Source: a virus
Reading direction: 5' to 3' (one strand)
DNA: 64,000 nt
IMG/VR virus record: IMGVR_UViG_3300014720_000016
In this document: positions 16,626 through 63,432 of the stretch, one piece after another
How the letters are laid out: the number at the start of each line of letters is the position of its first letter
Position numbering within the stretch: position 1 is the stretch's first letter
The notes under the pieces: generated by a model
Database searches by the model: none
What the model saw: only the letters and a program-made list of their open reading frames with translations
Told to the model about the DNA's origin: nothing
Made by a program: the position numbers and the translations under genes

Positions 16626-16811
16626 CTAGGAAAGTGATCCAAGAGTAGAAATGCCAAAAATAGAATATAGCAGACCCAAGATAAACACAATAACAGTGCT
16701 AGTGTATCCGCCAGGCGTGGCGCCTTCATCAGAGTTCATCTTTGCAAGCATATCACTGGCTGCCAGTGCCATGCAAATTGTACCCGCTGCGATAATAAGT
16801 GCGCTAATCAT
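16626..16811 (-). CDS. Small two-TM membrane protein
   Basis: Two hydrophobic stretches. Confidence 0.55.
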   Translation of the reverse strand: MISALIIAAGTICMALAASDMLAKMNSDEGATPGGYTSTVIVFILGLLYSIFGISTLGSLS

Positions 16812-17105
16812 TTCTTAGGTCCATAAATTATGATCTGTCTTTTATAAAGAGTATGGTGAGCCAGCTCTTTTGAAGTATTTGCTAGCCTCCACTGCCAAGT
16901 AACCCAGCCGTCATGTGATATTTTGTATGTGGTAAGGCTATAGCCTATACAGATAGCAACCTCTTCCCATCCATCCATCCGGCAGTAGCTTGATTTCGTA
17001 TTGCCTGTCTATCTCTATGTTAAACTGGCTCTCTACGAGTCCGAGGATTGCTTCTGAATCATTTTCCCTGAAAGCGGATCGGGCGACGAACCAATCTAGC
17101 TTCAT
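16808..17105 (-). pseudogene. Frameshifted MKL family A gene
   Basis: MKLDWFVARSAFRENDSEAILGLVESQFN...; removing one ATGG from GGATGGATGGATGG gives a 97-aa ORF with ATGA overlaps at both ends. Confidence 0.65.
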
Positions 17106-17893
17106 CGCTGATCCCAATCCTCAATTTTAATTCTTTTAACACGCCCCCATGTAAAGCCATTGGCAAGCGCCATGGTGCGATAAAAGTCGTTTAAGTTGTT
17201 AGTGCCCCAGTTGGATCGAATCATTCCGGGCAGGTGTGGCACAGTGCTGGTATCGCAAATCACGTCTATTATCTCAGGTTTCGCCCTGATAAAAGTTCTT
17301 TTCATGGCAGGTTTTATTCCGTTCTGTAGCAGCCGGATCACAAACCGCTGACGCTGTGCCGGGCGCATGGCACCTAGAATAGAGCTGTATTTATATAGAT
17401 GCAATGCGCGGTCACGGGCATTATCAGGGTTGCTCTCTACAAGCCTCAAGAACTGGGGCATGGCAAATCCACATGCTAAAGCAGCACCGTGCTCAAACCT
17501 GTCATCTCCACCTAGCTTAGCGGCAGCCTGCTTAACCAAGTCCTTAATCGCACCTAGTTTGCGGCTGGCGATCTTTTTCCAGGTTAATGTTGCGTAGCCT
17601 AGAGCCTTGCGGTTCTGATTGTGCAGCTTGCCAGGATGACAATCACCGTGAAGCGCGTAGACTATATTAGGCAAAGGAAAGCGAATCGTCTTGCCTTTGC
17701 GATCCACTACTTCCCTGGGTGCTAAATGGTGCAGGGTGTAGGGTTGCCATGTTGTTGTTTTAGATTTTTTTAGATAGTGCCATACACCGGTATATTTACC
17801 AAAAGGCACGATGACAAGGGTTTCCTTGTGCATGTTGTAGAGAAAGGCTTCCCCGCTCTTAGCAAGGTTCCAAAGAATTTTGCTAAAGTGCAT
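17102..17893 (-). CDS. Hypothetical basic protein
   Basis: 263-aa ORF, coupled to the next gene. Confidence 0.65.
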   Translation of the reverse strand: MHFSKILWNLAKSGEAFLYNMHKETLVIVPFGKYTGVWHYLKKSKTTTWQPYTLHHLAPREVVDRKGKTIRFPLPNIVYALHGDCHPGKLHNQNRKALGYATLTWKKIASRKLGAIKDLVKQAAAKLGGDDRFEHGAALACGFAMPQFLRLVESNPDNARDRALHLYKYSSILGAMRPAQRQRFVIRLLQNGIKPAMKRTFIRAKPEIIDVICDTSTVPHLPGMIRSNWGTNNLNDFYRTMALANGFTWGRVKRIKIEDWDQR

Positions 17894-17908
17894 AAGCCCT
17901 TTCTGGTT

Positions 17909-18427
17909 CTAGTTAATGGAAGAGAGTGCCGACTCAATGTTGGAGAGGATTGTCTCGGTCGTGGAATCTAGCCGCACCCGTATGACTGGCCGACCCAGGG
18001 CAGAGGCAATGCGCAGGCTATGCGCAGTACCGCCGCTGCCTTCCGACTTTTGAAACGCTACTACGACATCCGATGTCTGTACTATACTCGCGTTACGGGT
18101 CATTAGCTTTTTACTACCTTGGCCAAGGTGTGACCAGGCTGGATGAGCCGATTTAGCCAGCTGCATTAGCTGCTCGTTAAGCGCATCATGCAAAACATTT
18201 CCGGCCACTATTTGCTCTGCGTTGTAGGAAGGCCACGGCAAATGCAAGTGAACTAATTCTGGCCTAAAATTTCCTCCTGCGGCAAAAGCCGCATCAGACC
18301 CATTTGCATTACCGCTATGCAGCTCCCAGTCGCGCCGTACAATTTCTGCGCCAATGGCTCGCAGTAGGGCAGGGACCTGTTCTGAAATGTCCCGGCTGCC
18401 TACGCAGGCGATCTTGCTAACAGGCAT
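17909..18427 (-). CDS. SLOG/DprA-like (Rossmann-like) protein
   Basis: KIACVGSR, LHSGNANGSDAAF, LMTRNASIV, GGTAHSLRIA. Confidence 0.8.
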   Translation of the reverse strand: MPVSKIACVGSRDISEQVPALLRAIGAEIVRRDWELHSGNANGSDAAFAAGGNFRPELVHLHLPWPSYNAEQIVAGNVLHDALNEQLMQLAKSAHPAWSHLGQGSKKLMTRNASIVQTSDVVVAFQKSEGSGGTAHSLRIASALGRPVIRVRLDSTTETILSNIESALSSIN

Positions 18428-19103
18428 AATTCGTGCCTTCTTTCTCCAGCACATAGCTCCAGTACCTGGGATTTGGCTTGCTCTGTAGCTGGTCCCAAAA
18501 GATACACCGCGCTACATATGGTGAAACTCCGGCCTTGCGCGAGCTGGTAACCCAGTGGTTTTCCATCTTGCGATAGGTTGCTCGCCCAGTAGGCGATGAG
18601 TTGTACTCCAAGCCCTCGATGCCATAAAGCCGTAGCTGGTGGACATCGCCGCAAACTACACGGGCCTCGCTGGGATGAATCATTTCAAGAGCGAATGAAA
18701 CCTTAGCTACACCAAGGCCATAGATCTTGCTGGTGATCTCATCGCGCTTTGCGATGTGCCGCTTCTTGGTCGTAAAGCGGAAATCGCTAGGCCGGTCCCA
18801 GTAGAGATTGGAAAAGTGCTGGATATACTTGGCGCGACTGTTATGCAACCCGGCCCTAGACTCCTTAAGGTTCTCTAGAAGAACCTCTGGCTTACCAGCC
18901 CAGTTATTGTAGTTCTTGATTGCTTGGTACCCGTTGACGTTACCACGAAATGTGGTATGCACACTGCAAAACGCAAACAGATACCTCTGGAAAATTTCCA
19001 TATCGTCCTGTGGACGAAGGGACTCCCAATAGTCCGTGTAGCGCTTGGCAATATCGGGGTTGATGGTTTTGAAAAAGTCGCGAGCCTTGCTGTAGTCGAT
19101 CAA
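18417..19103 (-). CDS. HhH-type DNA glycosylase/AP lyase (8-oxoG Ogg-like)
   Basis: HhH IYGLGVAKVSF with catalytic Lys, then VVCGDVHQLR. Confidence 0.72.
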   Translation of the reverse strand: MIDYSKARDFFKTINPDIAKRYTDYWESLRPQDDMEIFQRYLFAFCSVHTTFRGNVNGYQAIKNYNNWAGKPEVLLENLKESRAGLHNSRAKYIQHFSNLYWDRPSDFRFTTKKRHIAKRDEITSKIYGLGVAKVSFALEMIHPSEARVVCGDVHQLRLYGIEGLEYNSSPTGRATYRKMENHWVTSSRKAGVSPYVARCIFWDQLQSKPNPRYWSYVLEKEGTNYAC

Positions 19104-19133
19104 GTGAAGAAACCTTGAAAAAAGAGGTCTACG

Positions 19134-19916: not shown

Positions 19917-20228
19917 CTAATCAGTTACTATGATATAGTTTCTATAGGAAAAGCTGGAGTTTTCAAGTCGAGGAGGTCCGCCGCTCCGAGTGAAACGGTA
20001 GTGCAGGCTATCTGTCCAGTTTACGGGAATGTATATCGACCACTCATTGCAAAGCATGATTGTTTTAATTATCACAGATTCATTTTTCTCTGTATAAAAT
20101 TTCCAAGGAGCAGAAGGCAATCGAGCACCATAGTCTCTTCCAATAAGAGTTGCTACCCTGTCTCGTAGGGCTTCGGCATTACCCTCTTGCCATGCGAACC
20201 AAAGATCTACGCTGGCATCAAGTTTCAT
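19917..20228 (-). CDS. MKL family A protein (divergent)
   Basis: MKLDASVDLWFAWQEGNAEALRDRVATLIG. Confidence 0.55.
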   Translation of the reverse strand: MKLDASVDLWFAWQEGNAEALRDRVATLIGRDYGARLPSAPWKFYTEKNESVIIKTIMLCNEWSIYIPVNWTDSLHYRFTRSGGPPRLENSSFSYRNYIIVTD

Positions 20229-21095: not shown

Positions 21096-21127
21096 GGATC
21101 GCCCCCGCCCGGCTTTAGGCCCGCCTC
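21096..21127 (-). promoter_or_regulatory. 32-bp element, copy 6
   Basis: GAGGCGGGCC TAAA GCCGGGCGGG GGCGATCC. Confidence 0.7.
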
Positions 21128-26584: not shown

Positions 26585-26845
26585 CTACCTCACAACAAAT
26601 GCGTAGTTACCAGGAGGATACCCGGCTGGTGGGTGGGAGCGATGGTTCCATACTCCATCGCACCAATAATTCCATGACTCATGACCTTTGACTATTGAGA
26701 TGCACAACCAATCGCTACTTATCTCTGGATTAGCAGTTATCCTCTCAGGTGGCTCAATCCCAATTTCTCGCGAAACTATTCGTACTACCTCGCGCCAATC
26801 GCGCGAGGCGGCAGCAGATTGCAAAGCCCAGTCATGGAGTTTCAT
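26585..26845 (-). CDS. MKL family A protein
   Basis: MKLHDWALQSAAASRDWREVVRIVSREIG...NYW. Confidence 0.7.
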   Translation of the reverse strand: MKLHDWALQSAAASRDWREVVRIVSREIGIEPPERITANPEISSDWLCISIVKGHESWNYWCDGVWNHRSHPPAGYPPGNYAFVVR

Positions 26846-28854: not shown

Positions 28855-29883
28855 CTACTCTCCTATCTTCAACAGGAACGCATTGTTAATTACCTTGAAG
28901 GAAGCCCTGGCTAATCCGGTTCCCAAGTAGCTCGCGATAACAGCGGAGTTGCGCTCTCGCGTAGGTCGGATAACAATACCCTCTCGTGGATGCCCGCTAT
29001 CATAGTTGCCCTCGGCAGCCGCTAAGGCTGTCTCAAGCGTAATATCAAGCTGCCTGACCCAAAGGATAGGTACTGTTGGAATTGAATAGCGGCTGCAAAA
29101 TTCTTGGAAATCTTCGAAGTCAAGGTACGCTTGCCCAGAGATGTCAAACACCTGGAAAGCATAAAATGCCTTGCCACGAATACCCAGACGGTTCCCCTGG
29201 ATGCTCTCGCCAACAAATTCTCCTTGGACGGCAAACCCGGCAGGCATATTTTCAAATATACCCAGCTGACGAGCCATGGTCCAGTGAGGAGATCCTTCAA
29301 TGTCTTTTAGTGCATAATTACGGGTGCAGACAAATTGCGTCTCGCCCTCGGCGTCACGATGCTTTGCAAAGGTAAGGGACTGGCCATCTAGCTTGACAGC
29401 TGCATAGCACTCTACGCCACGCAACTCGTCTAGTACCTCGGGTACTGATTGCAAGCGAATCTCATCTGTTTTGTTAAACAGGTGAGTGGGAAAATTGCCG
29501 GCAATTTCGCGAGCCCCGCTGGTAGATGCAGGCTCCCACTTTGTTACGCCAAGCTGGGCAGTGACATCGCTGCCTTCCGCAATAGGGCAGGACTCAGGAA
29601 GAACTGATACCGGCAGGGCTAGGCCCTGCGAAAGTACCCCTCGCATACGCTTGCTGCGCAGCCTAAAATTATCAGGTCGCTTGCCATCTGGCCACAAGAA
29701 AGAAAAGATGCTCCTATCAGGCAGGACGGAATCAATCTCGAAGTAAACGCAACAGTCGCCTGCCTGGAACTCTCCCTTGCGAGATACGAGCTGCCATCCA
29801 AGAACCTGGATCTTTTCGACCCTGTCTGCGCCAGGGATCGGGGATACTGATATTACCTTCTGGATGCTTGCCAGCTTGCGCAT
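28855..29883 (-). CDS. RNA ligase, DRB0094/Rnl5-like family
   Basis: MRKLASIQ N-terminal OB domain, KTDE.RLQ, motif I KLDGQS, QGEFVG, REGIV, SFKVIN. Confidence 0.9.
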   Translation of the reverse strand: MRKLASIQKVISVSPIPGADRVEKIQVLGWQLVSRKGEFQAGDCCVYFEIDSVLPDRSIFSFLWPDGKRPDNFRLRSKRMRGVLSQGLALPVSVLPESCPIAEGSDVTAQLGVTKWEPASTSGAREIAGNFPTHLFNKTDEIRLQSVPEVLDELRGVECYAAVKLDGQSLTFAKHRDAEGETQFVCTRNYALKDIEGSPHWTMARQLGIFENMPAGFAVQGEFVGESIQGNRLGIRGKAFYAFQVFDISGQAYLDFEDFQEFCSRYSIPTVPILWVRQLDITLETALAAAEGNYDSGHPREGIVIRPTRERNSAVIASYLGTGLARASFKVINNAFLLKIGE

Positions 29884-29884
29884 G

Positions 29885-30106
29885 TCAGCCCTCCCCCTTG
29901 CCGTCCTCCGCGGCAGCGGCCTCAGCATCTTTTTCTTCAATATACTTGTGGAGAGAATCTGATACAAACCGCGAAAGGACATCAGGAGTGATTTCCGTCA
30001 CTCCATAAAAAAACTTAATATGTTCAGCTGCTTCATCATCATAATTGATGTCAGCTTTTAGGGAGCCGTCCGGCATTTCTTTAAGAGAAAGGATCTCGAT
30101 CTTCAT
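29885..30106 (-). CDS. Hypothetical protein
   Basis: Start MKIEIL; first gene after motif copy 8. Confidence 0.55.
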   Translation of the reverse strand: MKIEILSLKEMPDGSLKADINYDDEAAEHIKFFYGVTEITPDVLSRFVSDSLHKYIEEKDAEAAAAEDGKGEG

Positions 30107-48831: not shown

Positions 48832-48852
48832 TCAAGGATGTAACTGAAAGCT

Positions 48853-50007: not shown

Positions 50008-50049
50008 TCGGGCTGATGTAAAGGGAATGCTCAAGAAACGAGGTCAACA

Positions 50050-51321
50050 TTGAAACTGATAGCCGTCTATAATGTGCCAGATCTTCCTAACCTGGAGTTC
50101 AACCATCGCAAGTATGCAGACCGCCATGGCTTGCAATTCGAACGAGTGGTTCTTGGAACTGACAGCCTCGCAGAGAGGTACTCCGCTTATCTAGAGGCAC
50201 TACAGAAGAATCCGGGCGAAACAATCATGTTCGTTGACAATCACACATACTTCGCCAACTTTGACTTCCTGCCACAGCCCGAAGGGGACTGTCTGCTCCA
50301 GAAGCATGAAGACACCTACATCACTGGTCTTTTCATAGTAAAGAGTAATGAGGCCACAGCCCTGTGTTTCGAGCAGGCCCTTATGCTAGTCAACAAGCAT
50401 GGCTATATGATGGGCGGGTGGCAAGAGATCAAGCGGAGCAAGATGGTATTCCCGAAAGGCTTCTCTAAAGAATATCCGCATAAACAGGACGGAGTATACC
50501 TGTGCGCAACCGTCTATGCTCACAATAACATATTAACAGTGGCCGATCAAAAGGCGGTGCTCGCGGTCACGTTTGCACACGCAAAGATGAAACCAGACGA
50601 GTGCGATTATTACGCAGAGGCTATGTGCAGCAGGCAAGGCGCATCTCCAGCTATTCCAGCCGAAGGCTTTGAGTGCTTCAACCCAGGCGGCAAGCACGCC
50701 TTTGTAACCATGTACACGCCCAATATCGCTGAGATGGGTATCCTGTCCGAAGAAAATCTAAAACTTTATTGCGCCAAGAACGACATTACCTACTACATCT
50801 ACCGCGGTGTTCCAGCCGATCTAGCTGCTGCCGGCGTAGCAGACGCATGGGTCAAGCCCTGGTTAATCCTAAAGCATTTCGATCCGCACGTCACCGTATC
50901 ATGGATCGATTCAGATATACTTATTGGCCCGGACTGGAAGTTAGACTTCACCCGCGAAGTAGCCTGTTTCAAAGACCCGCTGTTTACTTTCAATTCAGGC
51001 TTTATGATGTTTGCCACTACAGATAAAAATCGTGCGCTGCTGGATGACGTGATCGCTAGCATCCGCGCAATCAACGGCAAGCTGGAAGGGGTATATAACC
51101 ATGGCGGCGATCAGCCCCGGTTTATTGATGCCGTGCTCAAGCACTACCCGGGATATGCTCCGCTAAGCGCGCGCCTCGGCAATACGCATCCGGGCTTTCC
51201 AAGCTCGATACCTCCGGCAGCAACAGACAAGATGCTGCACTTCATGGGGTATGCAAAGCCGATACGGACAGCGCTTATGGCAGGTTACTCCAGTGTGATG
51301 AACCGCAAGTATAAGTGCTAA
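50050..51321 (+). CDS. Glycosyltransferase (GT34/nucleotide-diphospho-sugar transferase-like), duplicated GT-A domains
   Basis: WVKP, WIDSDIL, FNSGFM, GDQ, LHFMG in the C-terminal half; degenerate copy N-terminally. Confidence 0.7.
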   Translation: MKLIAVYNVPDLPNLEFNHRKYADRHGLQFERVVLGTDSLAERYSAYLEALQKNPGETIMFVDNHTYFANFDFLPQPEGDCLLQKHEDTYITGLFIVKSNEATALCFEQALMLVNKHGYMMGGWQEIKRSKMVFPKGFSKEYPHKQDGVYLCATVYAHNNILTVADQKAVLAVTFAHAKMKPDECDYYAEAMCSRQGASPAIPAEGFECFNPGGKHAFVTMYTPNIAEMGILSEENLKLYCAKNDITYYIYRGVPADLAAAGVADAWVKPWLILKHFDPHVTVSWIDSDILIGPDWKLDFTREVACFKDPLFTFNSGFMMFATTDKNRALLDDVIASIRAINGKLEGVYNHGGDQPRFIDAVLKHYPGYAPLSARLGNTHPGFPSSIPPAATDKMLHFMGYAKPIRTALMAGYSSVMNRKYKC

Positions 51322-51335: not shown

Positions 51336-51758
51336 CTAACGACTGCGGGTTTCTGCTATTTTAGCAGGAGATAGCGCAGGACTACATTCGTCAGCATCTA
51401 TGCCAATACTGGCAAGTGCCTTGATAAAATCCTGCGTTTCTGGCAAGTCACCTACGTTGAATACCGGACAGATGCCGGGCATAGTGGCGATAGTATCGCG
51501 GTTAGCTCGCCAATGGTAGCCATACCGCTGCCCGTCTAAGTGACTGGCAGGAATACAAATCGTGTGATGGTAGGCCCAGTTGCCTTCCGCGTCGCCCCAC
51601 CCGATGAAAATACCAGAGCCATACTTCTTGCTGGAAGTCCTGGGCACGGATTCTAGTGCAGTCATAAGCTGCTCTAAGTGCGGCCACCTGCTGTCAGGAG
51701 GCAGCAACTTGTTTATCTCCAGTATATGAAACTGCATTGCCCAATCATTTAGCTTCAT
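51336..51758 (-). CDS. MKL family B protein
   Basis: MKLNDWA...RWPHLE...GIFIGW...WAYHH...PVFNVGDLPE. Confidence 0.72.
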   Translation of the reverse strand: MKLNDWAMQFHILEINKLLPPDSRWPHLEQLMTALESVPRTSSKKYGSGIFIGWGDAEGNWAYHHTICIPASHLDGQRYGYHWRANRDTIATMPGICPVFNVGDLPETQDFIKALASIGIDADECSPALSPAKIAETRSR

Positions 51759-52372: not shown

Positions 52373-52633
52373 TCAGTGGGTAAATACAGTAAGACGCGGC
52401 AAGGCGTGATAGCCAAGGCCATCCTCTATCTTTACCCCCGAACTCAATGTTGACCAACGCCAGCGAGTTTCGCCATTATCTACAATAACTTCCGGGATAT
52501 TATTAACGTGTCTATAAACACGGATTTGCCAGTCAAACAGTTGAAGGTGCGGGTCGCCGTACACAAGCCTCGCAGCCTCTAGCCAATCCCGCTTCTCGTA
52601 TGCCTCTCGAATCAAGTAGTTGATTAGCTTCAT
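52373..52633 (-). CDS. MKL family A protein
   Basis: MKLINYLIREAYEKRDWLEAARLV; IPEVIV; WRW. Confidence 0.72.
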   Translation of the reverse strand: MKLINYLIREAYEKRDWLEAARLVYGDPHLQLFDWQIRVYRHVNNIPEVIVDNGETRWRWSTLSSGVKIEDGLGYHALPRLTVFTH

Positions 52634-53380: not shown

Positions 53381-53698
53381 CTACTTGTAGCGGTGGGGCA
53401 TTGCATTCCACTTAGCAATTGCAAGGCGGCGGATCTCTGCATCCGTATCTTGCGGAGCATAATCCTCTACTGGAAAAGTTCCCATGAATGTTTTTACCCT
53501 GTACTTGCGAGTTACCTTTGGCGCAGGCACATCTACAATAGATGCAGAGCCGCCTCGCAATCCGCAATCGGGACAGGCGATGTGAAAACTGGATCTCAAT
53601 CCGGGACCAAAGCTGTACTCATAGTCAGGCTGGACCTCGACGTATTGCACATTAGGATTACCACAGTAGTGGCAAGGTGCCGGTTTATCTGATGCCAT
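53381..53698 (-). CDS. Lar (restriction alleviation)-like Zn-ribbon protein
   Basis: PCHYCG...IACPDCG...AIAKWN. Confidence 0.6.
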   Translation of the reverse strand: MASDKPAPCHYCGNPNVQYVEVQPDYEYSFGPGLRSSFHIACPDCGLRGGSASIVDVPAPKVTRKYRVKTFMGTFPVEDYAPQDTDAEIRRLAIAKWNAMPHRYK

Positions 53699-54368
53699 GA
53701 TCAAGGATCTCCACCCAGCGCTTGGTCAAAAGTTCTATATAATCCGATCCGCTCATATTGCCCCAGCGATAATAGCCTAGAGCCCAACCGTCATTCGCCT
53801 CTACTAGCAAGCCACCCGCATCAGTAACACCTACATCTAGGGCATAGCCGGCTGGGGCATCGCTGTATGCAGCAATCATGCGATGGACGAACTCCATTTC
53901 TAACTCGACTTCGTCGTCGCCGTCATCATATCGGGATGCCCCTACGACGCGCCCGTTGATAATATAGGTGCGAAACTCTGCCAAGAGCTGGATGGGCGGC
54001 GAGCACCACACTGGCTCGTTGAGATCTATTGTCTCGTTTGCATCGGGTGCTATGCCGCCAGTGAATGCTTTAGTTCGCAGGGGCTTACAAAAGAAGCCGG
54101 GTGGAACGGCGGAAAACGTACAGCGCTGCACCGGCCTACGCAGCGCCCAGCGCAATGATTCGGGATAGGTGTCGCTATCTGGCAAACGGATGCGGTTTAG
54201 ATCAGCATACCTGCGGACAAACTCTACTGAGCCAACTGGCACGGTCGCACTAGGATCTGCTACCGGGACCAGTTCATCATAAGTGATAACCGTTCGCTGG
54301 TGATCTGTGGCCGCAAAAAGATTGCGCTCATCGCGGCAGGCCGGTCCTGACTGAATTAAATAATGCAT
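53685..54368 (-). CDS. ATP-grasp domain protein (DUF4343/R2K-like)
   Basis: PVGSVEF, YPESL, FCKP..KAFTG, EFRTYI, YALDVG, VEANDGWALG. Confidence 0.82.
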   Translation of the reverse strand: MHYLIQSGPACRDERNLFAATDHQRTVITYDELVPVADPSATVPVGSVEFVRRYADLNRIRLPDSDTYPESLRWALRRPVQRCTFSAVPPGFFCKPLRTKAFTGGIAPDANETIDLNEPVWCSPPIQLLAEFRTYIINGRVVGASRYDDGDDEVELEMEFVHRMIAAYSDAPAGYALDVGVTDAGGLLVEANDGWALGYYRWGNMSGSDYIELLTKRWVEILDHGIR

Positions 54369-54507: not shown

Positions 54508-54918
54508 TTAGCCCGCTTTCTTTGGGAAAGTCCATCTGAACGAGCAGGAATCTCCGAATTGGTATACCCTGATCTTCAGCCATCCTGATTGCCTGGCCGT
54601 CGCGACAGAGGCAGCATCCATGCGCAAGTCTGTCAGCTCGCCCACGTTAATCCTGATCGAAGTTGTTTGCCAAACAGGATCGCTATACCGCTCCCACTTT
54701 AGTTCGATCAGCCGCTTAGAGGGCTCAACATAGTACGAGATAAAGCCCCTTGAGCGGAGGTCTGCTTCACGGGCTGCCGCATCTGCGTACCATGCCTCCA
54801 GCTTCTTTATGCGCCTCTGATCAAATAACGCTGGTGGCAGTTTGTTGTTGGTAAAAAATGTAGCGAGGTTTGCAGAGAGGTTCTCCACTCTGACACTCGG
54901 GACGCTATCGAGCTTCAT
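54508..54918 (-). CDS. MKL family C protein
   Basis: Aligns with 62457 (MKL.S.P..R...L..N.A.F...N.L.PA..D). Confidence 0.65.
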   Translation of the reverse strand: MKLDSVPSVRVENLSANLATFFTNNKLPPALFDQRRIKKLEAWYADAAAREADLRSRGFISYYVEPSKRLIELKWERYSDPVWQTTSIRINVGELTDLRMDAASVATARQSGWLKIRVYQFGDSCSFRWTFPKKAG

Positions 54919-54944: not shown

Positions 54945-54976
54945 GGATCGGGCCGACCCGGCTTTAGGCCCGGCGC
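54945..54976 (-). promoter_or_regulatory. 32-bp element, copy 14
   Basis: GCGCCGGGCC TAAA GCCGGGTCGG CCCGATCC. Confidence 0.75.
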
Positions 54977-54995: not shown

Positions 54996-55283
54996 TTACT
55001 TTATAATGGTGATCATGCCCAGCATACCGGGCGAGCCGGACCTCGCATCTTCCCACGACATATCCTGGGACGCACCAGTCTCTTCGTGCCAGCGCATAGT
55101 GCGCCCATCGCTAAACCTTATGCGCATAGACAGGTGCCTGATGATAGGCCCCCTGTCCCATGCCGTAATCTTAAACTGCGAATGGCGAGCCGGCTCACCG
55201 AAGTGATCAAGCAGGGCATCGACAGCGGCCGCGTAGTCGCCGGCAGCCAGAGCTTGGCGGATTAGAAACGAGCATATCTTCAT
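54996..55283 (-). CDS. MKL family A protein (MKI variant)
   Basis: MKICSFLIRQALAAGDYAAAVDALLDHFG; MRWHEETG. Confidence 0.72.
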   Translation of the reverse strand: MKICSFLIRQALAAGDYAAAVDALLDHFGEPARHSQFKITAWDRGPIIRHLSMRIRFSDGRTMRWHEETGASQDMSWEDARSGSPGMLGMITIIK

Positions 55284-55633
55284 CCGGCCTCCCACACCAG
55301 GGTTCCAGTAACGCGGTCGTCTCTGCGGTAGCAGAAAATGCCAACACTATACCTGCCCATCTCCACAGGACCAACCTGAAAGCCAGGAGGCAGGGCAAGG
55401 TTAACCTGAGTCATGTCCTCGCTGGTACCACGGTGAAGTGTATTTTCGCTTGCGCCTAGGCAAACAACACTCGCAGATGTGCAAACAAGAGTCGGGTACT
55501 TGCTCTTGCAGTCGAGCTCTACGAGAATAAGGGTTTCTGAAAAAATGGACACCCAGGCTGAAGCAATCTCGATTACTCCGGGCGTAATGCTTATGCCAAC
55601 CCTTTCACGAATCTCCCAATCGTGCAATTTCAT
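55280..55633 (-). CDS. MKL-WEI-start protein
   Basis: MKLHDWEIRERVG. Confidence 0.6.
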   Translation of the reverse strand: MKLHDWEIRERVGISITPGVIEIASAWVSIFSETLILVELDCKSKYPTLVCTSASVVCLGASENTLHRGTSEDMTQVNLALPPGFQVGPVEMGRYSVGIFCYRRDDRVTGTLVWEAG

Positions 55634-55910
55634 GCTGCGACCTCGTTGTTGTCCAGATTACAGCCCACGTTCCCTGCGCCAGAGATGGACCAGAATAAAT
55701 ACCCACGCCCCTTGTCCATGTGTACTTGCGATGGTTCATTGTAATCCCAATAAAGGTTTTTGGCATTCTATAGTAAACATTAATTTTTGAAACGGGCAGG
55801 TCATTAGGGGAAGGTGGCGGCACACCATGGCGGGCAGCGACAGCGACAGCAGCAGCGAACCAGTCGCCTGCCACAATATGCTGCTCAATAGCCCAATCAT
55901 CTAACTTCAT
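55605..55910 (-). CDS. MKL family A protein
   Basis: MKLDDWAIEQHIVAGDWFAAA...RHG; YTWTRGVGIY. Confidence 0.75.
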   Translation of the reverse strand: MKLDDWAIEQHIVAGDWFAAAVAVAARHGVPPPSPNDLPVSKINVYYRMPKTFIGITMNHRKYTWTRGVGIYSGPSLAQGTWAVIWTTTRSQHEIARLGDS

Positions 55911-56181
55911 TGACCCACCAGACGTTTGCTATCTTTGGCTTTTTGCCCGGACTTCTCCATTGACCAGGAGGCCCATTCGCACCCGTACGCCACAGATAAA
56001 CATCAATACCATGATCAACGATTACATTGCAGCCAGTAGCGGAGGGAGCCTGCCTCCAGCGGATTTCCATGTCGCTGACATCTGCATCTGGTATGCCAAA
56101 GTGGCTTAGCAGACCGCGCACAGCAGCACGCCCGTCGCCAGCATTCAGGGCCATCTGCATTTCAATATCTAGAAGTTTCAC
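55897..56181 (-). CDS. MKL family A protein
   Basis: MKLLDIEMQMALNAGD...SHFG; YLW. Confidence 0.72.
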   Translation of the reverse strand: MKLLDIEMQMALNAGDGRAAVRGLLSHFGIPDADVSDMEIRWRQAPSATGCNVIVDHGIDVYLWRTGANGPPGQWRSPGKKPKIANVWWVNEVR

Positions 56182-56684
56182 TCGCTGTCCTGCTTAGCCG
56201 CCCATGCCCGTGCGCGCTGAATGTCTACATCAGTCAGCCCAATATCGGGGTCAGGCGCGAAACGGAAAAGATTACCGGCCGGAGAAAAGTCCTCGCCAGT
56301 CGCTCGCCATTCTTCCGCAAGCAACTCTGAGTCATCGTCAAGCCAGATAATGCGTCTGCCGGTTCGCAGGGCAGCGGCAACAGCTCGCGGCTTCCAAAGC
56401 TCATCGCGTTCAGGATAAACGGGCGGAGCAGCAGCTACCGGGAAAGGCCCGATGCCTAAGCGGGGACACAGCAGAGTATTTGCTTTATTGTTTTCGTTCC
56501 ATGTAGTAAGCCAGTGAACCTCGCCAAGCTCTGCAACTGCGGCAGCGGCGCTACGGCTAAACCAAAGAGGGAAGCCGTCCTCGCGACAAGTGGTCCAGTC
56601 AGACCAGCAGGAAGGGGCAGGCGGCTGGGAGCCCGATAGAGCATTGAGTACGCCATCAAAATCTAGCAGCACTAGCGGACGCAT
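56178..56684 (-). CDS. HAD-superfamily hydrolase (RNA-repair-associated HAD type)
   Basis: LLDFDGVLN, WLTTW, WK, IIWLDDD, GLT. Confidence 0.82.
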   Translation of the reverse strand: MRPLVLLDFDGVLNALSGSQPPAPSCWSDWTTCREDGFPLWFSRSAAAAVAELGEVHWLTTWNENNKANTLLCPRLGIGPFPVAAAPPVYPERDELWKPRAVAAALRTGRRIIWLDDDSELLAEEWRATGEDFSPAGNLFRFAPDPDIGLTDVDIQRARAWAAKQDSE

Positions 56685-57677: not shown

Positions 57678-58012
57678 CGGGTTCTCCGGGGTTGCGGGTT
57701 CGTCGGGCTGGATCGGGCGGCACCGGGTTTAGGCCCGCCCCGGTGTGCCTTCAGGATGCCAGTGCGAATAGCCGCAGCATCTGACAGCACACGCTTGTAG
57801 ACAAGCATCTCGGGCGCATCATCGGGCACGTCATCATGGACCAGTGATGCAGGTACTGAGGAGTAAGCAGACGGCTCGTCGCCATGACGCAGGATTACTG
57901 AGCCTCCCAATACCGAGCGCCAACAATACCAGCCATCTACTTCTTCTCCGTCGAGCAGGTAGTGCCCAGTGAAAAGGCAATAGATGCAGTCGTGACGATA
58001 CTTCGGTTGCAT
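57593..58012 (-). CDS. Hypothetical protein whose frame runs through motif copy 15
   Basis: MQPKYRHDC..C; the C-terminal ~50 aa translate the motif and overlap the next gene. Confidence 0.55.
   Translation of the reverse strand: MQPKYRHDCIYCLFTGHYLLDGEEVDGWYCWRSVLGGSVILRHGDEPSAYSSVPASLVHDDVPDDAPEMLVYKRVLSDAAAIRTGILKAHRGGPKPGAARSSPTNPQPRRTRWTVLIPSILLLLLLAALFLATGVASFA
57710..57741 (-). promoter_or_regulatory. 32-bp element, copy 15
   Basis: GGGGCGGGCC TAAA CCCGGTGCCG CCCGATCC. Confidence 0.75.
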
Positions 58013-58287
58013 TACTTCCTCCTTTCATTTCCAACGAGCACATTCCCGCGCCACAGATATGAACCGCCGATGTCCGCGGCAAAGCCCCAGTCATTTACCC
58101 AGGAAATATATCCGCCCTCCTTCAGGTAAATAATTATCTCAGGGCCTGTCGGATCAATATCTCCTACTCGGAACCCGTACCCACTGAAGTCAATCTGCCG
58201 TTCAAAATAGCGGGCTACCAACTGGGCAGCCTCAAGCCAGCGCCGATCTAGCAGAGCCTCGCGCACAGCATAGTCTTCTAGCTTCAT
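58012..58287 (-). CDS. MKL family A protein
   Basis: MKLEDYAVREALLDRRWLEAA...RYFE; GPEIII; ISWVNDWGF. Confidence 0.75.
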   Translation of the reverse strand: MKLEDYAVREALLDRRWLEAAQLVARYFERQIDFSGYGFRVGDIDPTGPEIIIYLKEGGYISWVNDWGFAADIGGSYLWRGNVLVGNERRK

Positions 58288-59246: not shown

Positions 59247-59292
59247 GGTTACTCCGTTTTGTTTTGCCCGATGGGCCGGGCGGCACCCTCCG

Positions 59293-59324
59293 GGATCGGG
59301 CGGCACCGGCCTTAGGCCCGCCCC
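59293..59324 (-). promoter_or_regulatory. 32-bp element, copy 16
   Basis: GGGGCGGGCC TAAG GCCGGTGCCG CCCGATCC. Confidence 0.7.
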
Positions 59325-59376
59325 GGCATAGCTGCTGTCGGCCTGGCAGCGCATTCGATTTCAAATCCACCTAGCT

Positions 59377-59682
59377 TCATGGCGCCCAGTCCACATCTGC
59401 CCATATGGTAGCCCTCGTTCTATCGGAAAAGAGAGTTTCATACTGCATCAGTTCTCGCTTGTAAAAGCACTTGTAAAAGCAAGAGTCATCTTCTTCCCAG
59501 ACATAGACAACGTCCCCTACGCGCACCTCTATCTCGCGGCAAGGCTCACATACTCTTTTGATGGCTGTGCATGAGGATAAATCTGGAAAAGTTACTCCGA
59601 AGTGCTGCTCCATTATCCTGAGAGCACCAGCCCAATCGCACTCGTCCAAGGCGCAGCGGATCGCATAACCCTCAAGCTTCAT
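59377..59682 (-). CDS. MKL family A protein (array)
   Basis: MKLEGYAIRCALDECDWAGA...QHFG; YVW. Confidence 0.78.
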   Translation of the reverse strand: MKLEGYAIRCALDECDWAGALRIMEQHFGVTFPDLSSCTAIKRVCEPCREIEVRVGDVVYVWEEDDSCFYKCFYKRELMQYETLFSDRTRATIWADVDWAP

Positions 59683-59694
59683 CGCGCCTCCAAC

Positions 59695-59967
59695 CTAAGA
59701 AGTGCTGGGCATATAGATGTTGATGACAATACCTGCATTATACCAAGCCGTGCCCCTATAGAAGCCCCTGCCCTCTCTCCACGAATAGCAGTCCCTGCCG
59801 GCTCCAGTCCAAATCTCTACCTCGGGGACAAACATGGAGTCCACCAGCAGATCCAGACGGCAGTCATCAGGTATCGCAATTTGAAAATGATCCGCTAGTG
59901 CAGCAGCAGCTCCTCGCCAGTCACCAGCTCCTAGGCGATCAGCGACCAGGTAGTCCGCTAGCTTCAT
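59695..59967 (-). CDS. MKL family A protein (array)
   Basis: MKLADYLVADRLGAGDWRGAA...DHFQ; YSWREGRGFY. Confidence 0.78.
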   Translation of the reverse strand: MKLADYLVADRLGAGDWRGAAAALADHFQIAIPDDCRLDLLVDSMFVPEVEIWTGAGRDCYSWREGRGFYRGTAWYNAGIVINIYMPSTS

Positions 59968-60236
59968 CGCGTAAATATCCTGGCCAATGGTTTATCTACA
60001 AGAACAGACTGGCGACTCCAGAAACCATCGTATTCTTCCCACACATAGCGATAGCCGTCAGCCAGTATATTAACTTCTAGTGGCGAGCCGTCGCCCGTGA
60101 AGGGCTGCCCGGTTTCAAGAACGCTAAAGGGTAGGGCCGAGAATGGCTGGCCAAAATGATCTGACATTATGCGCAGGACTCGTGGCCAGTCCTTGTCGCC
60201 AAAAGCGATCAGCATTTCTGCGGCAGCCAGCTTCAC
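59964..60236 (-). CDS. MKL family A protein (array, GTG start)
   Basis: KLAAAEMLIAFGDKDWP...DHFG; YVWEEYDGFW. Confidence 0.78.
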   Translation of the reverse strand: MKLAAAEMLIAFGDKDWPRVLRIMSDHFGQPFSALPFSVLETGQPFTGDGSPLEVNILADGYRYVWEEYDGFWSRQSVLVDKPLARIFTR

Positions 60237-60523
60237 ATACGCTCCCAAATGTCAAATGCTTGGAAATATTTATACAGTGTGCCGGCATCCCTTGGGCCGT
60301 CAAAACCGCTTGTGCTATACCAGTAATATTTCGTATTGCGATGCACTACAATGATGGCGCACTTGAGAGTATCGTCCGGCGGCAGTCTGTTGATGGCCGG
60401 GCTAATGCTACGAGTTACCTCGGCAATCCCCGGCGCGCAGAAGTGCTCGGCCAAGATACTGCCTGCTGTTACATAATCGGCATCGTTCATAGCGCACAGC
60501 ATTTTATAGGATAATAGCTTCAT
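60233..60523 (-). CDS. MKL family A protein (array)
   Basis: MKLLSYKMLCAMNDADY...EHFC; YYWYSTSGF. Confidence 0.78.
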   Translation of the reverse strand: MKLLSYKMLCAMNDADYVTAGSILAEHFCAPGIAEVTRSISPAINRLPPDDTLKCAIIVVHRNTKYYWYSTSGFDGPRDAGTLYKYFQAFDIWERM

Positions 60524-60786
60524 GGAACTTTACCCCATATAGCTATCCACTCATTATCATGTCCTGCTTTTACGCTATATCGCGCATCGGGATGCCAGAC
60601 GTAAACACGGCCTGCTCTAGCGATCCGCACCTGATTATTGGTTGCCTTACGAATGCTCATGTCCAGAATGGCGGGCGAGGCAGCGTCGAAACCCTCTAGG
60701 TTAAACACATCAGCGACTGCATTGGCTGCCGTTAGCCAGTCGCCGCGCTCTATCGAATCGCGCACAACCCAGTCCCGTAGCTTCAT
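60520..60786 (-). CDS. MKL family A protein (array)
   Basis: MKLRDWVVRDSIERGDWLTAA...DVFN; YVW. Confidence 0.78.
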   Translation of the reverse strand: MKLRDWVVRDSIERGDWLTAANAVADVFNLEGFDAASPAILDMSIRKATNNQVRIARAGRVYVWHPDARYSVKAGHDNEWIAIWGKVP

Positions 60787-60794
60787 GCTCTGCC

Positions 60795-61100
60795 TCACGG
60801 TACGAAAAACATTACGCTGATTCTGCTAGCACCAGGCGGATCATGTACGACTGCCCCGAAGCCTACACTCTCAGTCCAATAGTATTTGTGTCCACAACAG
60901 CGCACCGCAACCTGGCGTGATATCTTCGGGAAAGAGGAAGCCATTCCATAAGTAATCACATACCGCCCCCGATGACAGAAGTCTGCAAGTTCTTGCCGGA
61001 CATTGGCGGGCAGGTCGAAGTGATGCGCTAGGGCTGCTACTGCTGCCGCATAGTTTTGTTCCGCCAAGGCGGATATGATCGGATAGTCCTCAAGTTTCAC
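60795..61100 (-). CDS. MKL family A protein (array, GTG start)
   Basis: KLEDYPIISALAEQNYAAA...HHFD; YYWTESVGF. Confidence 0.78.
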   Translation of the reverse strand: MKLEDYPIISALAEQNYAAAVAALAHHFDLPANVRQELADFCHRGRYVITYGMASSFPKISRQVAVRCCGHKYYWTESVGFGAVVHDPPGASRISVMFFVP

Positions 61101-61386
61101 GGCAGTCCCCATCTAGCGGAGCCCATATGTAAATCGCATCATGCGTGCCCCACCAGATGTGAGTCTTGCCGCTAACCCAGGTAAAGGTTTTGCCTTGATA
61201 GCAAATCTTTATTTGTGGCGGGATGCTTTGGCCGGGAATCCTGCTATCCTGTATTCGCGCTTGCAGTACCATGTCGTGCGATGGCGGCAGTCGGTGCAAG
61301 CCGAATAGATCACAGGCTGCGTCAATAGCGGCCGTCCAGTCATGCCTGGCAAGGGCGTCCGCTATTGCCCAGCTATCGAGTTTCAT
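61090..61386 (-). CDS. MKL family A protein (array)
   Basis: MKLDSWAIADALARHDWTAA...DLFG; FTW. Confidence 0.78.
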   Translation of the reverse strand: MKLDSWAIADALARHDWTAAIDAACDLFGLHRLPPSHDMVLQARIQDSRIPGQSIPPQIKICYQGKTFTWVSGKTHIWWGTHDAIYIWAPLDGDCRET

Positions 61387-61672
61387 GGCGCCTATGATGT
61401 ACTACGAACGCGCTATCACCGAGCGTAGTGCCATACTGGGAAAAGCTCCCATCGTCTGCCCAGAAATAATTCATATAGTTGAAGCGCAACCCGAGCATGT
61501 AGTAGGGCTTGTCTTTTTTTACCACAAGGAAATCTGGGCGGGTGGCAATAGCTAGCCGCACCCCTGCTCGCGCAGTATCCGGCAGATCGAAATGCTCCAT
61601 AAGGATCTCTAGTGCTGCCTCGTAGTTCTCGCCTTGAATGGCGGAGAGTATAGCGTAATTATTTAGCTTCAT
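61373..61672 (-). CDS. MKL family A protein (array)
   Basis: MKLNNYAILSAIQGENYEAA...EHFD; YFWADDGSF. Confidence 0.78.
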   Translation of the reverse strand: MKLNNYAILSAIQGENYEAALEILMEHFDLPDTARAGVRLAIATRPDFLVVKKDKPYYMLGLRFNYMNYFWADDGSFSQYGTTLGDSAFVVHHRRHETR

Positions 61673-61989
61673 GATATTCTATAGGCGTGTTCGTGATAGA
61701 GTGGTCTGTCTATGTATGCGCGATTCGTGGCCATACTAGTCCGCATTACACTAAAGCCGTTGCCTTTTTTCCAGAAGTATGCTGTGCCGTTATGGCGTAG
61801 AGTAAAAGTTGCATAAGGAAAAAATCCCTCGTAACTGGAATCCACATAGTCCGCTCGGCTATCGTACAGGCTTGCGATCTCGCGGGCCTCGCGATCTGAC
61901 AGGTTGAAGTAGCCTATAACTATGCTTATGGCCATTCGCCAGTCGCGGGAATCTAATGCATCTGCCATAAGCCACGAGTCCAGCTTCAT
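61669..61989 (-). CDS. MKL family A protein (array)
   Basis: MKLDSWLMADALDSRDWRMA...GYFN; YFWKKGNGF. Confidence 0.78.
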   Translation of the reverse strand: MKLDSWLMADALDSRDWRMAISIVIGYFNLSDREAREIASLYDSRADYVDSSYEGFFPYATFTLRHNGTAYFWKKGNGFSVMRTSMATNRAYIDRPLYHEHAYRIS

Positions 61990-62186
61990 GCGCTGCCCTC
62001 GCTGCCCTCCTGCTTATCGGGCTTGCCGTGAGAGGCACCAGACATATAAGCTGCTGTCAGGGCTGCTCGAATCTCCCAGACCGCGAGATCATGGAAGTCC
62101 AGAGCATCGCTACGTCGGGTTTGCAGCGTGGCAACCCCGAGATATTCTTTTGCAATCCGCTCGATCTCTTCGGAAATGTTTGCCAT
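61986..62186 (-). CDS. DUF6900-like small protein
   Basis: IA..YLG..TLQTRRSDALDFHDLAVW.IRAAL.AAY..G. Confidence 0.7.
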   Translation of the reverse strand: MANISEEIERIAKEYLGVATLQTRRSDALDFHDLAVWEIRAALTAAYMSGASHGKPDKQEGSEGSA

Positions 62187-62194
62187 AGTGCACC

Positions 62195-62494
62195 TCATAA
62201 TTTTATTTCTAGTTGCAGGTCAATCGCCAGCGGGCAGTAGATCGCGCACCACGGCTTGGTAATAGGATAGGAACGCGGCTCTTCATAAAAGCCTTCATCG
62301 TTATCCCACCAATAACTGCGCATCTCCGGCATCTGAATAAAGGATTGCCGCAGGCCGGGGAATGCTACTGGGCGCTTCACATCTGCCCGGATCAAAGTAA
62401 TACCCAGCCCGAAGTGGTCCGACATAAGCCGGACTACAGCAGGCCAATCTCCGGCGTCAAACGCCGTGTTCATCAGGTAGGTTGCCAGCTTCAT
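62195..62494 (-). CDS. MKL family A protein
   Basis: MKLATYLMNTAFDAGDWPAVVRLMSDHFG; YWWDNDEGFY. Confidence 0.78.
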   Translation of the reverse strand: MKLATYLMNTAFDAGDWPAVVRLMSDHFGLGITLIRADVKRPVAFPGLRQSFIQMPEMRSYWWDNDEGFYEEPRSYPITKPWCAIYCPLAIDLQLEIKL

Positions 62495-62915
62495 CCTTGG
62501 AAATATCCCAGTAAAAATCTTTAAGCATCTCAGCAGGACCTATTAGGCGGAGACGCATAGTGCTCGCGGTCGCAATCCTGGCTAGGTTTTGCGGACCAAC
62601 AATCAGGGTGGCTAGGTCGACTAGGTTTGTAGCTACCGCAGCATCCAGCTTCGCGACGTAGCGCGGTCTATTGTACCAGTAAATAAAAACCTTGAATGCT
62701 TCGGGAGCTGGTTCTGCACGAGGTGCCCAGCCCATGATACGGCGAGCCGAGTTCGTGCGATTGATTGCGGCATTGCAACCGGCAAACCACGACAGCGCCG
62801 CTTCGGTTCTATGGCCATCTATTGCTGCCGGAGCCAGATTATTGCCTGCTATAAAAGCGGCAAAGTTATCCTGTAACACTTGCAGGCGGAACTCGGGCAT
62901 GGAGTGCAGCTTCAT
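62457..62915 (-). CDS. MKL family C protein
   Basis: Aligns with 54508. Confidence 0.65.
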   Translation of the reverse strand: MKLHSMPEFRLQVLQDNFAAFIAGNNLAPAAIDGHRTEAALSWFAGCNAAINRTNSARRIMGWAPRAEPAPEAFKVFIYWYNRPRYVAKLDAAVATNLVDLATLIVGPQNLARIATASTMRLRLIGPAEMLKDFYWDISKDEAGNLPDEHGV

Positions 62916-62917
62916 GG

Positions 62918-63118
62918 TTACTCGATTGCCTCACGCTGGAAAATACCCATCCACTGGGTACCGCCGGTATAGTCATCGCCGTGGCAAGCCTTGTCTTCCC
63001 AAGGCCATTCCGCAAACCGGGCATCTGCAAAACGGCGAGCAGCAGCATAACTAGCAGCGATCTCAATAATGCGGCCTTCGCGGGCAGCATCACCTGCCTC
63101 TACTACCCATACTGTCAT
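62918..63118 (-). CDS. Hypothetical protein
   Basis: ATGA-coupled. Confidence 0.55.
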   Translation of the reverse strand: MTVWVVEAGDAAREGRIIEIAASYAAARRFADARFAEWPWEDKACHGDDYTGGTQWMGIFQREAIE

Positions 63119-63432
63119 GGCATTCTCCTGTAAGGAACTCTGCCTTCTACTACAATTAACTTGGCTGGCTTGGCTGGCACCGTGATGACCCGCGCTCCAC
63201 CAGTAAGGCGCAGGAATAGAGATCCATCTACACAGGTGAATACAACCGTGTCGTGCGGCGGGCCAAGGCGAACGTGCACACGAAACCAGTAGCTAGCGGG
63301 CCAGTAACTAATATCCCAGCCTTCAGCCGCGCCAAAGTCCTGCCTTGGAAAGTGGCGGGAGAATATTTGCAGAATCCTGGCAACATCGCCTGCCCGTGCT
63401 GCGTCCTCTATATCCCAGGCTTCTAGCTTCAT
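63115..63432 (-). CDS. MKL family A protein
   Basis: MKLEAWDIEDAARAGDVARILQIFSRHFP. Confidence 0.72.
   Translation of the reverse strand: MKLEAWDIEDAARAGDVARILQIFSRHFPRQDFGAAEGWDISYWPASYWFRVHVRLGPPHDTVVFTCVDGSLFLRLTGGARVITVPAKPAKLIVVEGRVPYRRMP

Follow-up and report, generated by a model that had tools for sequence, protein, structure and literature searches.

Why a phage should keep dozens of highly divergent copies of one small gene is the question raised by a 64,000-nucleotide stretch of viral DNA from IMG/VR record IMGVR_UViG_3300014720_000016, analyzed here at its full length and referred to as the window. The window is approximately 50% G+C and consists almost entirely of small, densely packed genes on the minus strand; among these, a first-pass annotation had listed about 30 open reading frames (ORFs) as one expanded, hypervariable paralogue family, here termed family A. 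Family A is an old paralogue family with at least 47 genes per genome, encoding soluble proteins of about 90 aa, and the reading preferred here is that these proteins may bind host proteins.

The ORFs of the first-pass annotation served as the seed, through a pattern search and then a profile hidden Markov model (HMM), and the search was iterated over 820 stop-to-stop frames from both strands. The HMM converges on 29 frames, on the minus strand without exception, and 28 of these are intact ORFs of 85-113 aa that score between E 4e-14 and 5e-25. Twenty-eight of the 30 members originally claimed for the minus strand therefore stand as intact genes; of the other two, the one at 16808 is a broken copy, and the one at 19917-20228 starts with MKL yet fails the profile (E 5) and does not belong to family A. 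When each intact member is withheld in turn, the profile of the other 27 recovers it in 28/28 cases (E 6e-18 to 1.7e-7), and most of these alignments span 70-90 residues; similarity beyond the first few residues is thus established, with the C-terminal part weak when taken alone. After removal of the first 32 residues, 10/28 members are recovered at E < 0.01 and 20/28 at E < 0.1, and five are left without signal; most of the detectable similarity therefore lies in the N-terminal third and one β-hairpin. Despite the weak C-terminal similarity, family A is a genuine family. The window members have isoelectric points (pI) from 4.5 to 9.5, a range that makes DNA mimicry unlikely, and contain 0-7 cysteines each in no pattern. 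The 19.6 kb past the right edge of the window on the same contig hold 18 further members, bringing the total in this genome to at least 47 copies. The copies in the window, which include a confirmed run of nine consecutive genes at 59377-61989, are listed below with the E-value of the iterated HMM.

63115-63432, minus strand: 105 aa, most divergent C-terminus; E 1.7e-17, leave-one-out 1.7e-7 over the N-terminal 37 residues only; AlphaFold 2 helices and 5 strands, pLDDT 65
62195-62494, minus strand: 99 aa; E 2.3e-24, leave-one-out 3e-15
61669-61989, minus strand: 106 aa, first of nine consecutive; E 2.4e-20, leave-one-out 3e-14
61373-61672, minus strand: 99 aa; E 7.2e-18, leave-one-out 2.7e-12
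61090-61386, minus strand: 98 aa; E 1.2e-20, counterpart in relative L042 57% identical
60795-61100, minus strand: 101 aa from GTG-AAA-CTT; E 5.6e-20, leave-one-out 1.8e-14
60520-60786, minus strand: 88 aa; E 5.2e-23, leave-one-out 4.4e-14
60233-60523, minus strand: 96 aa; E 8.6e-20, syntenic counterpart in relative G001 52% identical
59964-60236, minus strand: 90 aa from GTG; E 2.5e-20, G001 and L042 counterparts 52-53% identical
59695-59967, minus strand: 90 aa; E 2.1e-24, leave-one-out 6e-18
59377-59682, minus strand: 101 aa, modeled copy; E 1.5e-24, AlphaFold pLDDT 83.6, pTM 0.75
58012-58287, minus strand: 91 aa; E 9.4e-17, leave-one-out 4.9e-10
55897-56181, minus strand: 94 aa from GTG; E 2.3e-20, leave-one-out 6.1e-13
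55605-55910, minus strand: 101 aa; E 1.2e-21, leave-one-out 2.2e-14
54996-55283, minus strand: 95 aa, starts MKI; E 1.8e-20, G001 counterpart 45% identical
52373-52633, minus strand: 86 aa; E 4.8e-19, leave-one-out 8.6e-10
46560-46856, minus strand: 98 aa from GTG; E 8.3e-18, leave-one-out 5.7e-10
45804-46097, minus strand: 97 aa; E 4.6e-25, leave-one-out 1.3e-16
45253-45561, minus strand: 102 aa, immediately upstream of the MoxR gene; E 1.2e-20, syntenic copy in relative G002 41-44% identical versus 99% for the adjoining MoxR
39658-39999, minus strand: 113 aa, downstream of the M16 peptidase block; E 3.4e-18, syntenic G002 copy 44-45% identical, synonymous divergence (dS) saturated
38889-39152, minus strand: 87 aa; E 5.9e-20, leave-one-out 1.2e-9
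38285-38563, minus strand: 92 aa from the MKL start; E 1.9e-23, leave-one-out 1.1e-14
37996-38283, minus strand: 95 aa if the start is TTG-AAG-CTC, which is uncertain (frame open to 38307); E 1.1e-20
37190-37474, minus strand: 94 aa; E 2.3e-24, exact protein called as a gene on two independent assemblies
36896-37153, minus strand: 85 aa from GTG; E 2.6e-20, forms with 36628-36894 the closest within-genome pair (36% identity)
36628-36894, minus strand: 88 aa; E 1.6e-23, leave-one-out 5.3e-17
34829-35092, minus strand: 87 aa, divergent C-terminus; E 1.7e-16 over profile positions 1-64, leave-one-out 1.1e-10
26585-26845, minus strand: 86 aa, divergent C-terminus; E 4.1e-14 over profile positions 1-68, leave-one-out 7.3e-10 over the N-terminal 37 residues
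16808-17105, minus strand: broken copy; N-terminal module in frame from 17105 down to 16938 (profile positions 1-38, E 3e-9), C-terminal-like piece in another frame from 16978 down to 16808 (E 37, no score alone)

The anatomy of the proteins was read from a profile of 242 non-identical members taken from the window, related phages, and a representative library, and this profile confirms the N-terminal and Y.W hairpin motifs as first described. M1 and K2 are present in 100% of the members and L3 in 94%; the N-terminal module follows the pattern MKL..Y.[IM]..A[LFI]...DW..A...L..HFG, with conserved positions at Y6, [IM]8, A11 (83%), [LFI]12, D16 (72%), W17, A20 (76%), L24, H27 (52%), F28, and G29. 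Later conserved positions are [IV]54, [ILV]56, Y63 (75%), W65 (94%), G70 (75%), F71 (72%), P83, I85, [IV]87, and [WY]88, and the positions in between carry less than about 1 bit of information each. Residues 1-29 contain zero insertions or deletions (indels) across the whole set, and the core of the Y-x-W-x4-G-F β-hairpin is likewise constant (median 16, standard deviation 0.6); the segment from HFG to the first core strand varies in both sequence and length (17-37 residues), as does the segment that follows GF (10-24 residues). The conserved residues are almost entirely hydrophobic, aromatic, Gly, or Pro; the polar exceptions K2, D16, and H27 do not look like a catalytic set, and the proteins show no enzyme-like signature. 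The profile shows no DNA-binding or zinc motif and no conserved Cys column.

AlphaFold2 modeling of the copy at 59377-59682 from the alignment of the 28 paralogues predicts two helices (residues 3-13 and 17-28) followed by five strands (39-42, 50-55, 58-63, 68-73, and 90-94), with a predicted local distance difference test (pLDDT) score of 83.6 and a predicted template modeling (pTM) score of 0.75; the two N-terminal helices are packed as part of the core against the sheet, which is built around the Y.W....GF hairpin. A less confident model (pLDDT 65) of the most divergent copy, at 63115-63432, shows these elements in the same order. A single fold common to typical and most divergent members, as anticipated, is therefore predicted from the identical order of two helices and five strands. 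The first-pass annotation had also pictured a constant scaffold with a variable surface; this is supported by the conserved hydrophobic core, the indel-free N-terminus, and the two variable segments.

Family A has no match in the sequence libraries searched, in agreement with its earlier description as an unrecognized family; the fold libraries returned only weak matches, which are no proof of a new fold. When 28/28 members were scanned against Pfam-A, PHROGs, NCBIfam, and PADLOC, nothing was found at E < 0.02 and no family was matched by more than one member; a 146-sequence profile gave no match to PDB sequences (best E 0.08), and megablast and tblastn against 50,697 GenBank phage records gave no match for a family member or the core block. 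Foldseek with the pLDDT-84 model gave a best E of 0.4 in the PDB and a weak 0.05 in BFVD; an exhaustive VIA-align comparison with 48,161 chains reached a weak best Z of 3.0; the shape search of the ESM Atlas reached a template modeling (TM) score of 0.46 at best, and its feature search gave only unnamed viral clusters under the informative score.

Homologues are found by a profile search of 1.84 billion representatives, which yields 252 proteins at E <= 0.001, nearly all of 83-128 aa and aligned from residue 1; the relatives of family A form about 240 sequence clusters, and a further homologue search with the profile returned 8 unnamed proteins. The exceptions among the 252 are 11 giant proteins, three of which were scanned and carry Ig_7 repeats together with type IX secretion sorting domains. 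These surface proteins are top matches of the profile and were rejected as homologues: each repeat contributes 2-5.6 bits over only some 30-40 profile positions, and the E-value is a summation artefact because 25-30 near-identical weak repeats add up. The G-G-x-Y-x-W-S-x-x-x-G motif of the Ig_7/CHU_C-associated repeats in giant Bacteroidota surface proteins resembles the Y.W....GF hairpin of family A, without homology.

The window is part of the JGI contig Ga0172372_10000119 (115,740 bp), two loci of which match it at 99.985% identity over 20.3 kb and at 100% over a 633-nt overlap. Relatives were reached via the MoxR ATPase protein. The complete relative, G001 (IMG/VR UViG_3300035212_003113; 371,675 bp), carries 45-47 family A copies, all on one strand at 3.9-77 kb, with none in the remaining genome; this tailed phage encodes TerL, rIIA, an SbcC-like protein, and a head protease, and no cultured phage has a TerL that is more than 26% identical to its own. 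Among fragments of other relatives, G002 has 12 copies in 24.8 kb, L042 has 12 in 20 kb, and L045 has 17 in 17.7 kb. Family A appears so far to be confined to one clade of uncultivated tailed phages of about 370 kb. A position at the physical end of the genome was considered and rejected: the ends of G001 overlap by 127 bp, as is typical of a circular assembly, and this overlap accounts for its 'direct terminal repeat'; the family is therefore assigned to one arc of the map and to no demonstrable physical end.

Within the window the most similar pair of members reaches 36% identity, and 128/378 pairs reach a BLASTP E < 1e-3. The best match lies in another phage, not in the same genome, for 23/28 copies, and counterparts in other phages are 39-57% identical, some of them in conserved order; the duplications are therefore considered mostly older than the split of these phages. 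On this sequence evidence family A is an old, retained repertoire rather than a recent burst, and the earlier term 'expansion' holds for the number of paralogues but not for their age, as even the closest pairs are distant and most copies are closer to those of other phages. Comparison with G002 sets the family apart from its surroundings: the MoxR, VWA/metallopeptidase, and M16 peptidase genes are 96-99% identical, with nonsynonymous divergence (dN) of 0.005-0.03, dS of 0.3-1.3, and dN/dS of 0.02, versus 41-45% identity, dN of 0.45-0.59, and saturated dS for the syntenic family A copies that flank this block. Family A diverges far faster than the neighboring enzymes. The dN/dS check proposed at the outset accordingly gives a value for the neighbors in the G002 comparison and a high dN for the family copies, whose ratio is unobtainable through the saturated dS. 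Two other assemblies with this stretch give no population signal because they are 99.98% identical to the window. A diversity-generating retroelement was rejected as the source of variation, with no RVT_1 match in G001 and no template or variable repeats in the window; the DNA repeats of the window are limited to a promoter-like element and one gene duplication at 47276/48059.

The array genes are tightly coupled, in that stops and starts overlap or nearly abut, and a Shine-Dalgarno sequence is often not visible. Gene blocks are headed by an oriented two-box element, CCTAAA-N13-GATCC, which occurs in the window as 14 exact copies and one variant, on the minus strand only, versus 0.5 expected; the distance to the following start codon is 30-50 nt, and most copies fall inside an 8-bp GC-rich hairpin. 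The copies are as follows.

679-700, 3362-3383, 7380-7401, 9895-9916, 16531-16552, 21096-21117, 30225-30246, minus strand: exact element
32333-32354, 40483-40504, 45214-45235, 47151-47172, 54945-54966, 57710-57731, 63884-63905, minus strand: exact element
59275-59331, minus strand: variant element

G001 carries 69 copies of the element on its coding strand, all but three of them in two stretches, one at 350-371 kb with an AT-rich spacer and a copy about every 500 bp, the other from 3 to about 132 kb with mostly a GC-hairpin spacer; the other three are scattered, chance-looking matches at 132, 173, and 233 kb. The remainder of G001, from 133 to 350 kb, carries TerL and other virion-type genes. 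CCTAAA-N13-GATCC is a candidate phage-specific promoter of a non-structural, probably early, temporal class. About 1 kb beyond the window edge, at L064:18319-18813, lies a gene for a 164-aa protein with a weak precomputed match to sigma-70 region 4; its product is a possible phage sigma-like factor for this element.

The arc contains recognizable genes of phage-host conflict. A Tad3-like gene (L064:14545-15015; 156 aa) sits within a family A array of this contig, roughly 5 kb past window position 64000, and a family A member directly follows it; the protein has Pfam Tad3 on record, and its match to the solved structure of Tad3, chain 9b7d_B, has an E-value of 1.9e-8. Direct binding of ThsB is how Tad3 blocks Thoeris (PMC13728456). 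An hhalign comparison of the Tad3-like protein with the 146-sequence family A profile gave a probability of 0.1%, and the two are unrelated. The family A copies of the relative L042 have an ArdA anti-restriction gene in their midst. The first-pass annotation had placed the family in the early region and suggested a role in anti-defence or host takeover; the promoter-motif arc, the Tad3-like gene, and ArdA support this by context only. Other neighbors with recognizable domains in the window are given below.

28855-29982, minus strand: Rnl2-type RNA ligase with PHA02142 OB domain
53685-54368, minus strand: R2K-clade ATP-grasp protein
56178-56684, minus strand: HAD 'Swiss-army-knife RNA repair' protein, weak match
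715-3328, minus strand: MoxR AAA+ ATPase and DUF2201 VWA/metallopeptidase, paralogous with the next pair
42616-45029, minus strand: second MoxR and DUF2201 pair
40521-41636: M16 peptidase, adjoining one MoxR/DUF2201 pair, starts MK[LI]

The R2K ATP-grasp, Rnl2 ligase, and HAD genes are predicted to function in RNA repair or protein modification and are of types typical of phage-host conflict. SpoU methylase and cREC_REC domains are present as precomputed Pfam matches in genes called on assemblies identical to this stretch. The MoxR, DUF2201, and M16 genes are conserved in G002 amid hypervariable genes, at the 96-99% given above; the PHROGs label 'HNH endonuclease' on the VWA protein looks like a mislabel. 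No recognized toxin domain was found in the 30 neighboring proteins scanned, and no gene for a toxin with a polymorphic C-terminus was found beside the arrays.

The MKL start is not a signature of family A. About 20 non-family genes of the window also begin with MK[LI], including the M16 peptidase, a plus-strand gene next to a DUF2827 gene, and several further small paralogue families; examples are the following.

8541-8996: non-family gene starting MK[LI]
12004-12438: non-family gene starting MK[LI]
40521-41636: M16 peptidase gene, as above
41650-41988: non-family gene starting MK[LI]
47275-48048, plus strand: non-family gene starting MK[LI]
50050-51321, plus strand: non-family gene starting MK[LI]
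51336-51758: non-family gene starting MK[LI]
54508-54918: non-family gene starting MK[LI]
62457-62915: non-family gene starting MK[LI]

In G001, MK[LI] starts number 12-19 per 20 kb at 0-80 kb, 9 at 320-340 kb, and 0-3 across most of the remainder. Profile-profile comparison aligns the other MKL families to family A over the first 12-36 columns only, with probabilities of 10-87%. At the start of the 28 genes, AAG is used by 23/28 and CTA or CTG by 20/28, compared with a general usage of 67% for AAG and 50% for CTA and CTG together; this choice is only mildly unusual, which suggests a constraint exerted mainly on the encoded amino acids. Candidate explanations of the MKL start are translation initiation, an addressing tag, and common descent of the N-terminal module. 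A second large MKL-starting family has 21 members (MKLDLWEAL...) of about 125 aa at 1-100 kb of G001 and in L042; it displays MORN-like 'DGPA...G..W' repeats, with 13 copies in G001 and 1 in the window.

It is hypothesized that the conserved core of family A acts as a scaffold and that each paralogue owes a target of its own to the variable segments. The proteins would bind stoichiometrically and without enzymatic activity, would be made in the non-structural, probably early, phase of infection, and would be directed at host defence or other host proteins, as with the direct-binding Thoeris inhibitors Tad3-Tad8. Family A is given about an even chance of being a repertoire of host-protein binders, one target per paralogue, made before the structural genes, with defence components as the likeliest class of target. 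An arms race with varied host targets would yield both long-kept distinct paralogues and very fast amino-acid divergence. Several observations count against this proposal. Positive selection and replacement by old alleles are inseparable because dS is saturated in the syntenic pairs. The structural model is built on paralogue alignments alone, and confidence in the second model is low (pLDDT 65). Other families of the arc begin with MKL as well and resemble family A weakly over its first 12-36 positions, so that the 'constant' signal may partly lie outside this fold. One Tad3-like gene and one ArdA gene are a thin association in an arc of about 150 genes. Finally, the N-terminal hairpin is the most conserved part of the protein, which is odd for a purely variable binder and may reflect a common partner or an addressing role; its conservation is adequately explained because the helices sit in the hydrophobic core.

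The MKL helical hairpin could also be a docking or addressing handle common to family A and, in a shorter form, to about 10 other families of the arc, coupling dozens of target-binding bodies to one machine; this is considered to have a small but real chance of being correct, and candidates for the machine are the MoxR/VWA-metallopeptidase/M16 cluster, a host protease, or a packaging or injection route. Two rival explanations along these lines are each given a slightly smaller chance. In one, which follows the adaptor logic of the poxvirus ankyrin-PRANC and viral F-box families, the constant hairpin docks on the MoxR/VWA-metallopeptidase/M16 cluster or a host protease and the variable part picks the clients; this unlikely scheme would account for an N-terminal module that is indel-free and the best conserved part of 242 members, and for two MoxR and DUF2201 pairs and an M16 gene inside or beside the arrays, with 96-99% conservation versus 41-45% for the flanking members, but gene neighborhood is weak evidence and the packing of the helices in the AlphaFold core explains their conservation by itself. 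In the other, the MKL amphipathic N-terminus is an addressing signal for proteins packed in the head and delivered with the DNA. The polymorphic T4 internal proteins have such a constant N-terminal tag, a capsid-targeting sequence, with a variable remainder, and one of them, IPI*, is an anti-restriction factor; this parallel, the invariant or nearly invariant M1-K2-L3 of family A, the MKL start of some 20 unrelated small genes of the arc, and the concentration of MKL starts at 0-80 kb and 320-340 kb of G001 all fit injection. It is equally doubtful, however, as there is no conserved position for prohead-protease (Glu-type) cleavage after the tag, where positions 4-10 are variable, in the predicted fold the N-terminus forms one of the core helices (residues 3-13), and the family A genes lie in the non-structural promoter class; the MK[LI] start of the M16 peptidase and of the plus-strand gene near DUF2827 is better matched by a preference in translation start.

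The remaining alternatives place the targets inside the phage, among toxins, or nowhere. Regulators or assembly factors acting within the phage, on its transcription, replication, or factory formation, are improbable to a similar degree: RNA polymerase and replication proteins are common targets of small early phage proteins, and a sigma-70 region-4-like gene (a weak precomputed match) is found in this arc just beyond the window, but 47 divergent copies that are 41-45% identical in synteny next to 99%-conserved enzymes are a misfit for conserved internal partners, and no conserved DNA-binding or zinc motif is present. Immunity-type proteins that neutralize toxins, whether of host abortive infection, bacteriocins, or competing phages in superinfection exclusion, are slightly less probable again. 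Tandem arrays of small, very divergent α+β proteins are typical of polymorphic toxin loci and the nearby R2K ATP-grasp and RNA-repair genes are conflict-associated; on the other side, no Pfam immunity family is matched, no toxin gene with a polymorphic C-terminus is recognized beside the arrays, and such proteins would mechanistically be a special case of the binder model. The view that family A is evolutionary debris, duplicated ORFans drifting without function, is hardly credible. It can point to one frameshifted copy and to C-terminal halves that are barely alignable in some copies, but 28/29 copies are intact, about 240 clusters keep the hydrophobic core pattern and the indel-free N-terminus, counterparts are kept across phages whose common genes show dS of 0.3 to >1, and gene packing is so tight that stops and starts overlap.

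Host-protein binding remains the preferred reading, and several known systems resemble family A in part. The ankyrin/PRANC families of poxviruses and the terminal multigene families (MGF) of African swine fever virus (ASFV) are thought to set host range and immune evasion; by analogy these are also large, old repertoires in a variable genome arm that join a constant to a variable module, but their folds are unrelated and family A belongs to viruses of a bacterial host and consists of much smaller proteins. The T4-type internal protein locus, which differs strongly from one related phage to the next, likewise combines a constant N-terminal stretch with a variable body; family A differs in lacking a cleavage motif, in an N-terminus predicted to lie within the fold, and in its non-structural promoter class. 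The direct-binding Thoeris inhibitors Tad3-Tad8 (PMC13728456) are, like family A, small soluble phage proteins of accessory arcs without enzymatic motifs, but they are single genes rather than a 47-copy family and family A has no sequence relation to Tad3. Lineage-specific expansions are known in jumbo phages, as in the zinc ribbon of Bacillus phage G with about 35 copies (PMC7824862); this resembles family A in having dozens of small-domain paralogues in one giant phage and differs in domain (family A is without conserved CxxC pairs), in phage lineage, and in its lower copy number. Paralogue expansions and small direct-binding anti-defence proteins are thus already known, and family A is a new, unusually large, and structurally unrecognized example.

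Family A accounts for approximately one gene in eight of a phage genome of about 370 kb. If its members are binders, it would be among the largest single-scaffold host-directed repertoires known in a phage, and its roughly 240 sequence clusters on one small scaffold would form a ready-made natural library for defence-system screening. If the docking-handle reading were true instead, it would be a phage adaptor repertoire with about 50 specificities, a principle undescribed for bacteriophages; the conserved N-terminal module and the MKL start common to unrelated neighbors raise the question of an N-terminal address or docking tag in giant phages. Whatever its function, family A is a clean marker of an uncultivated jumbo-phage clade.

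Two further features of the window lie apart from the family. The plus-strand island at 47275-51321 is the only sizeable one in the window; it contains two paralogues of 257 aa with 76% identity over their first 300 nt (47276/48059), one of which has a faint precomputed Glycos_transf_2 match, together with a DUF2827 protein (E 4.5e-82) and a 423-aa ORF. The DUF2827 gene has no close relative among 185,579 prokaryote genomes, and the island may be a cassette for cell-surface or DNA sugar modification. At 4889-6232 on the minus strand, a 447-aa protein carries the N-terminal (ribosome-binding) domain of trigger factor (E 4.7e-12), and is a chaperone-like protein encoded by the phage.

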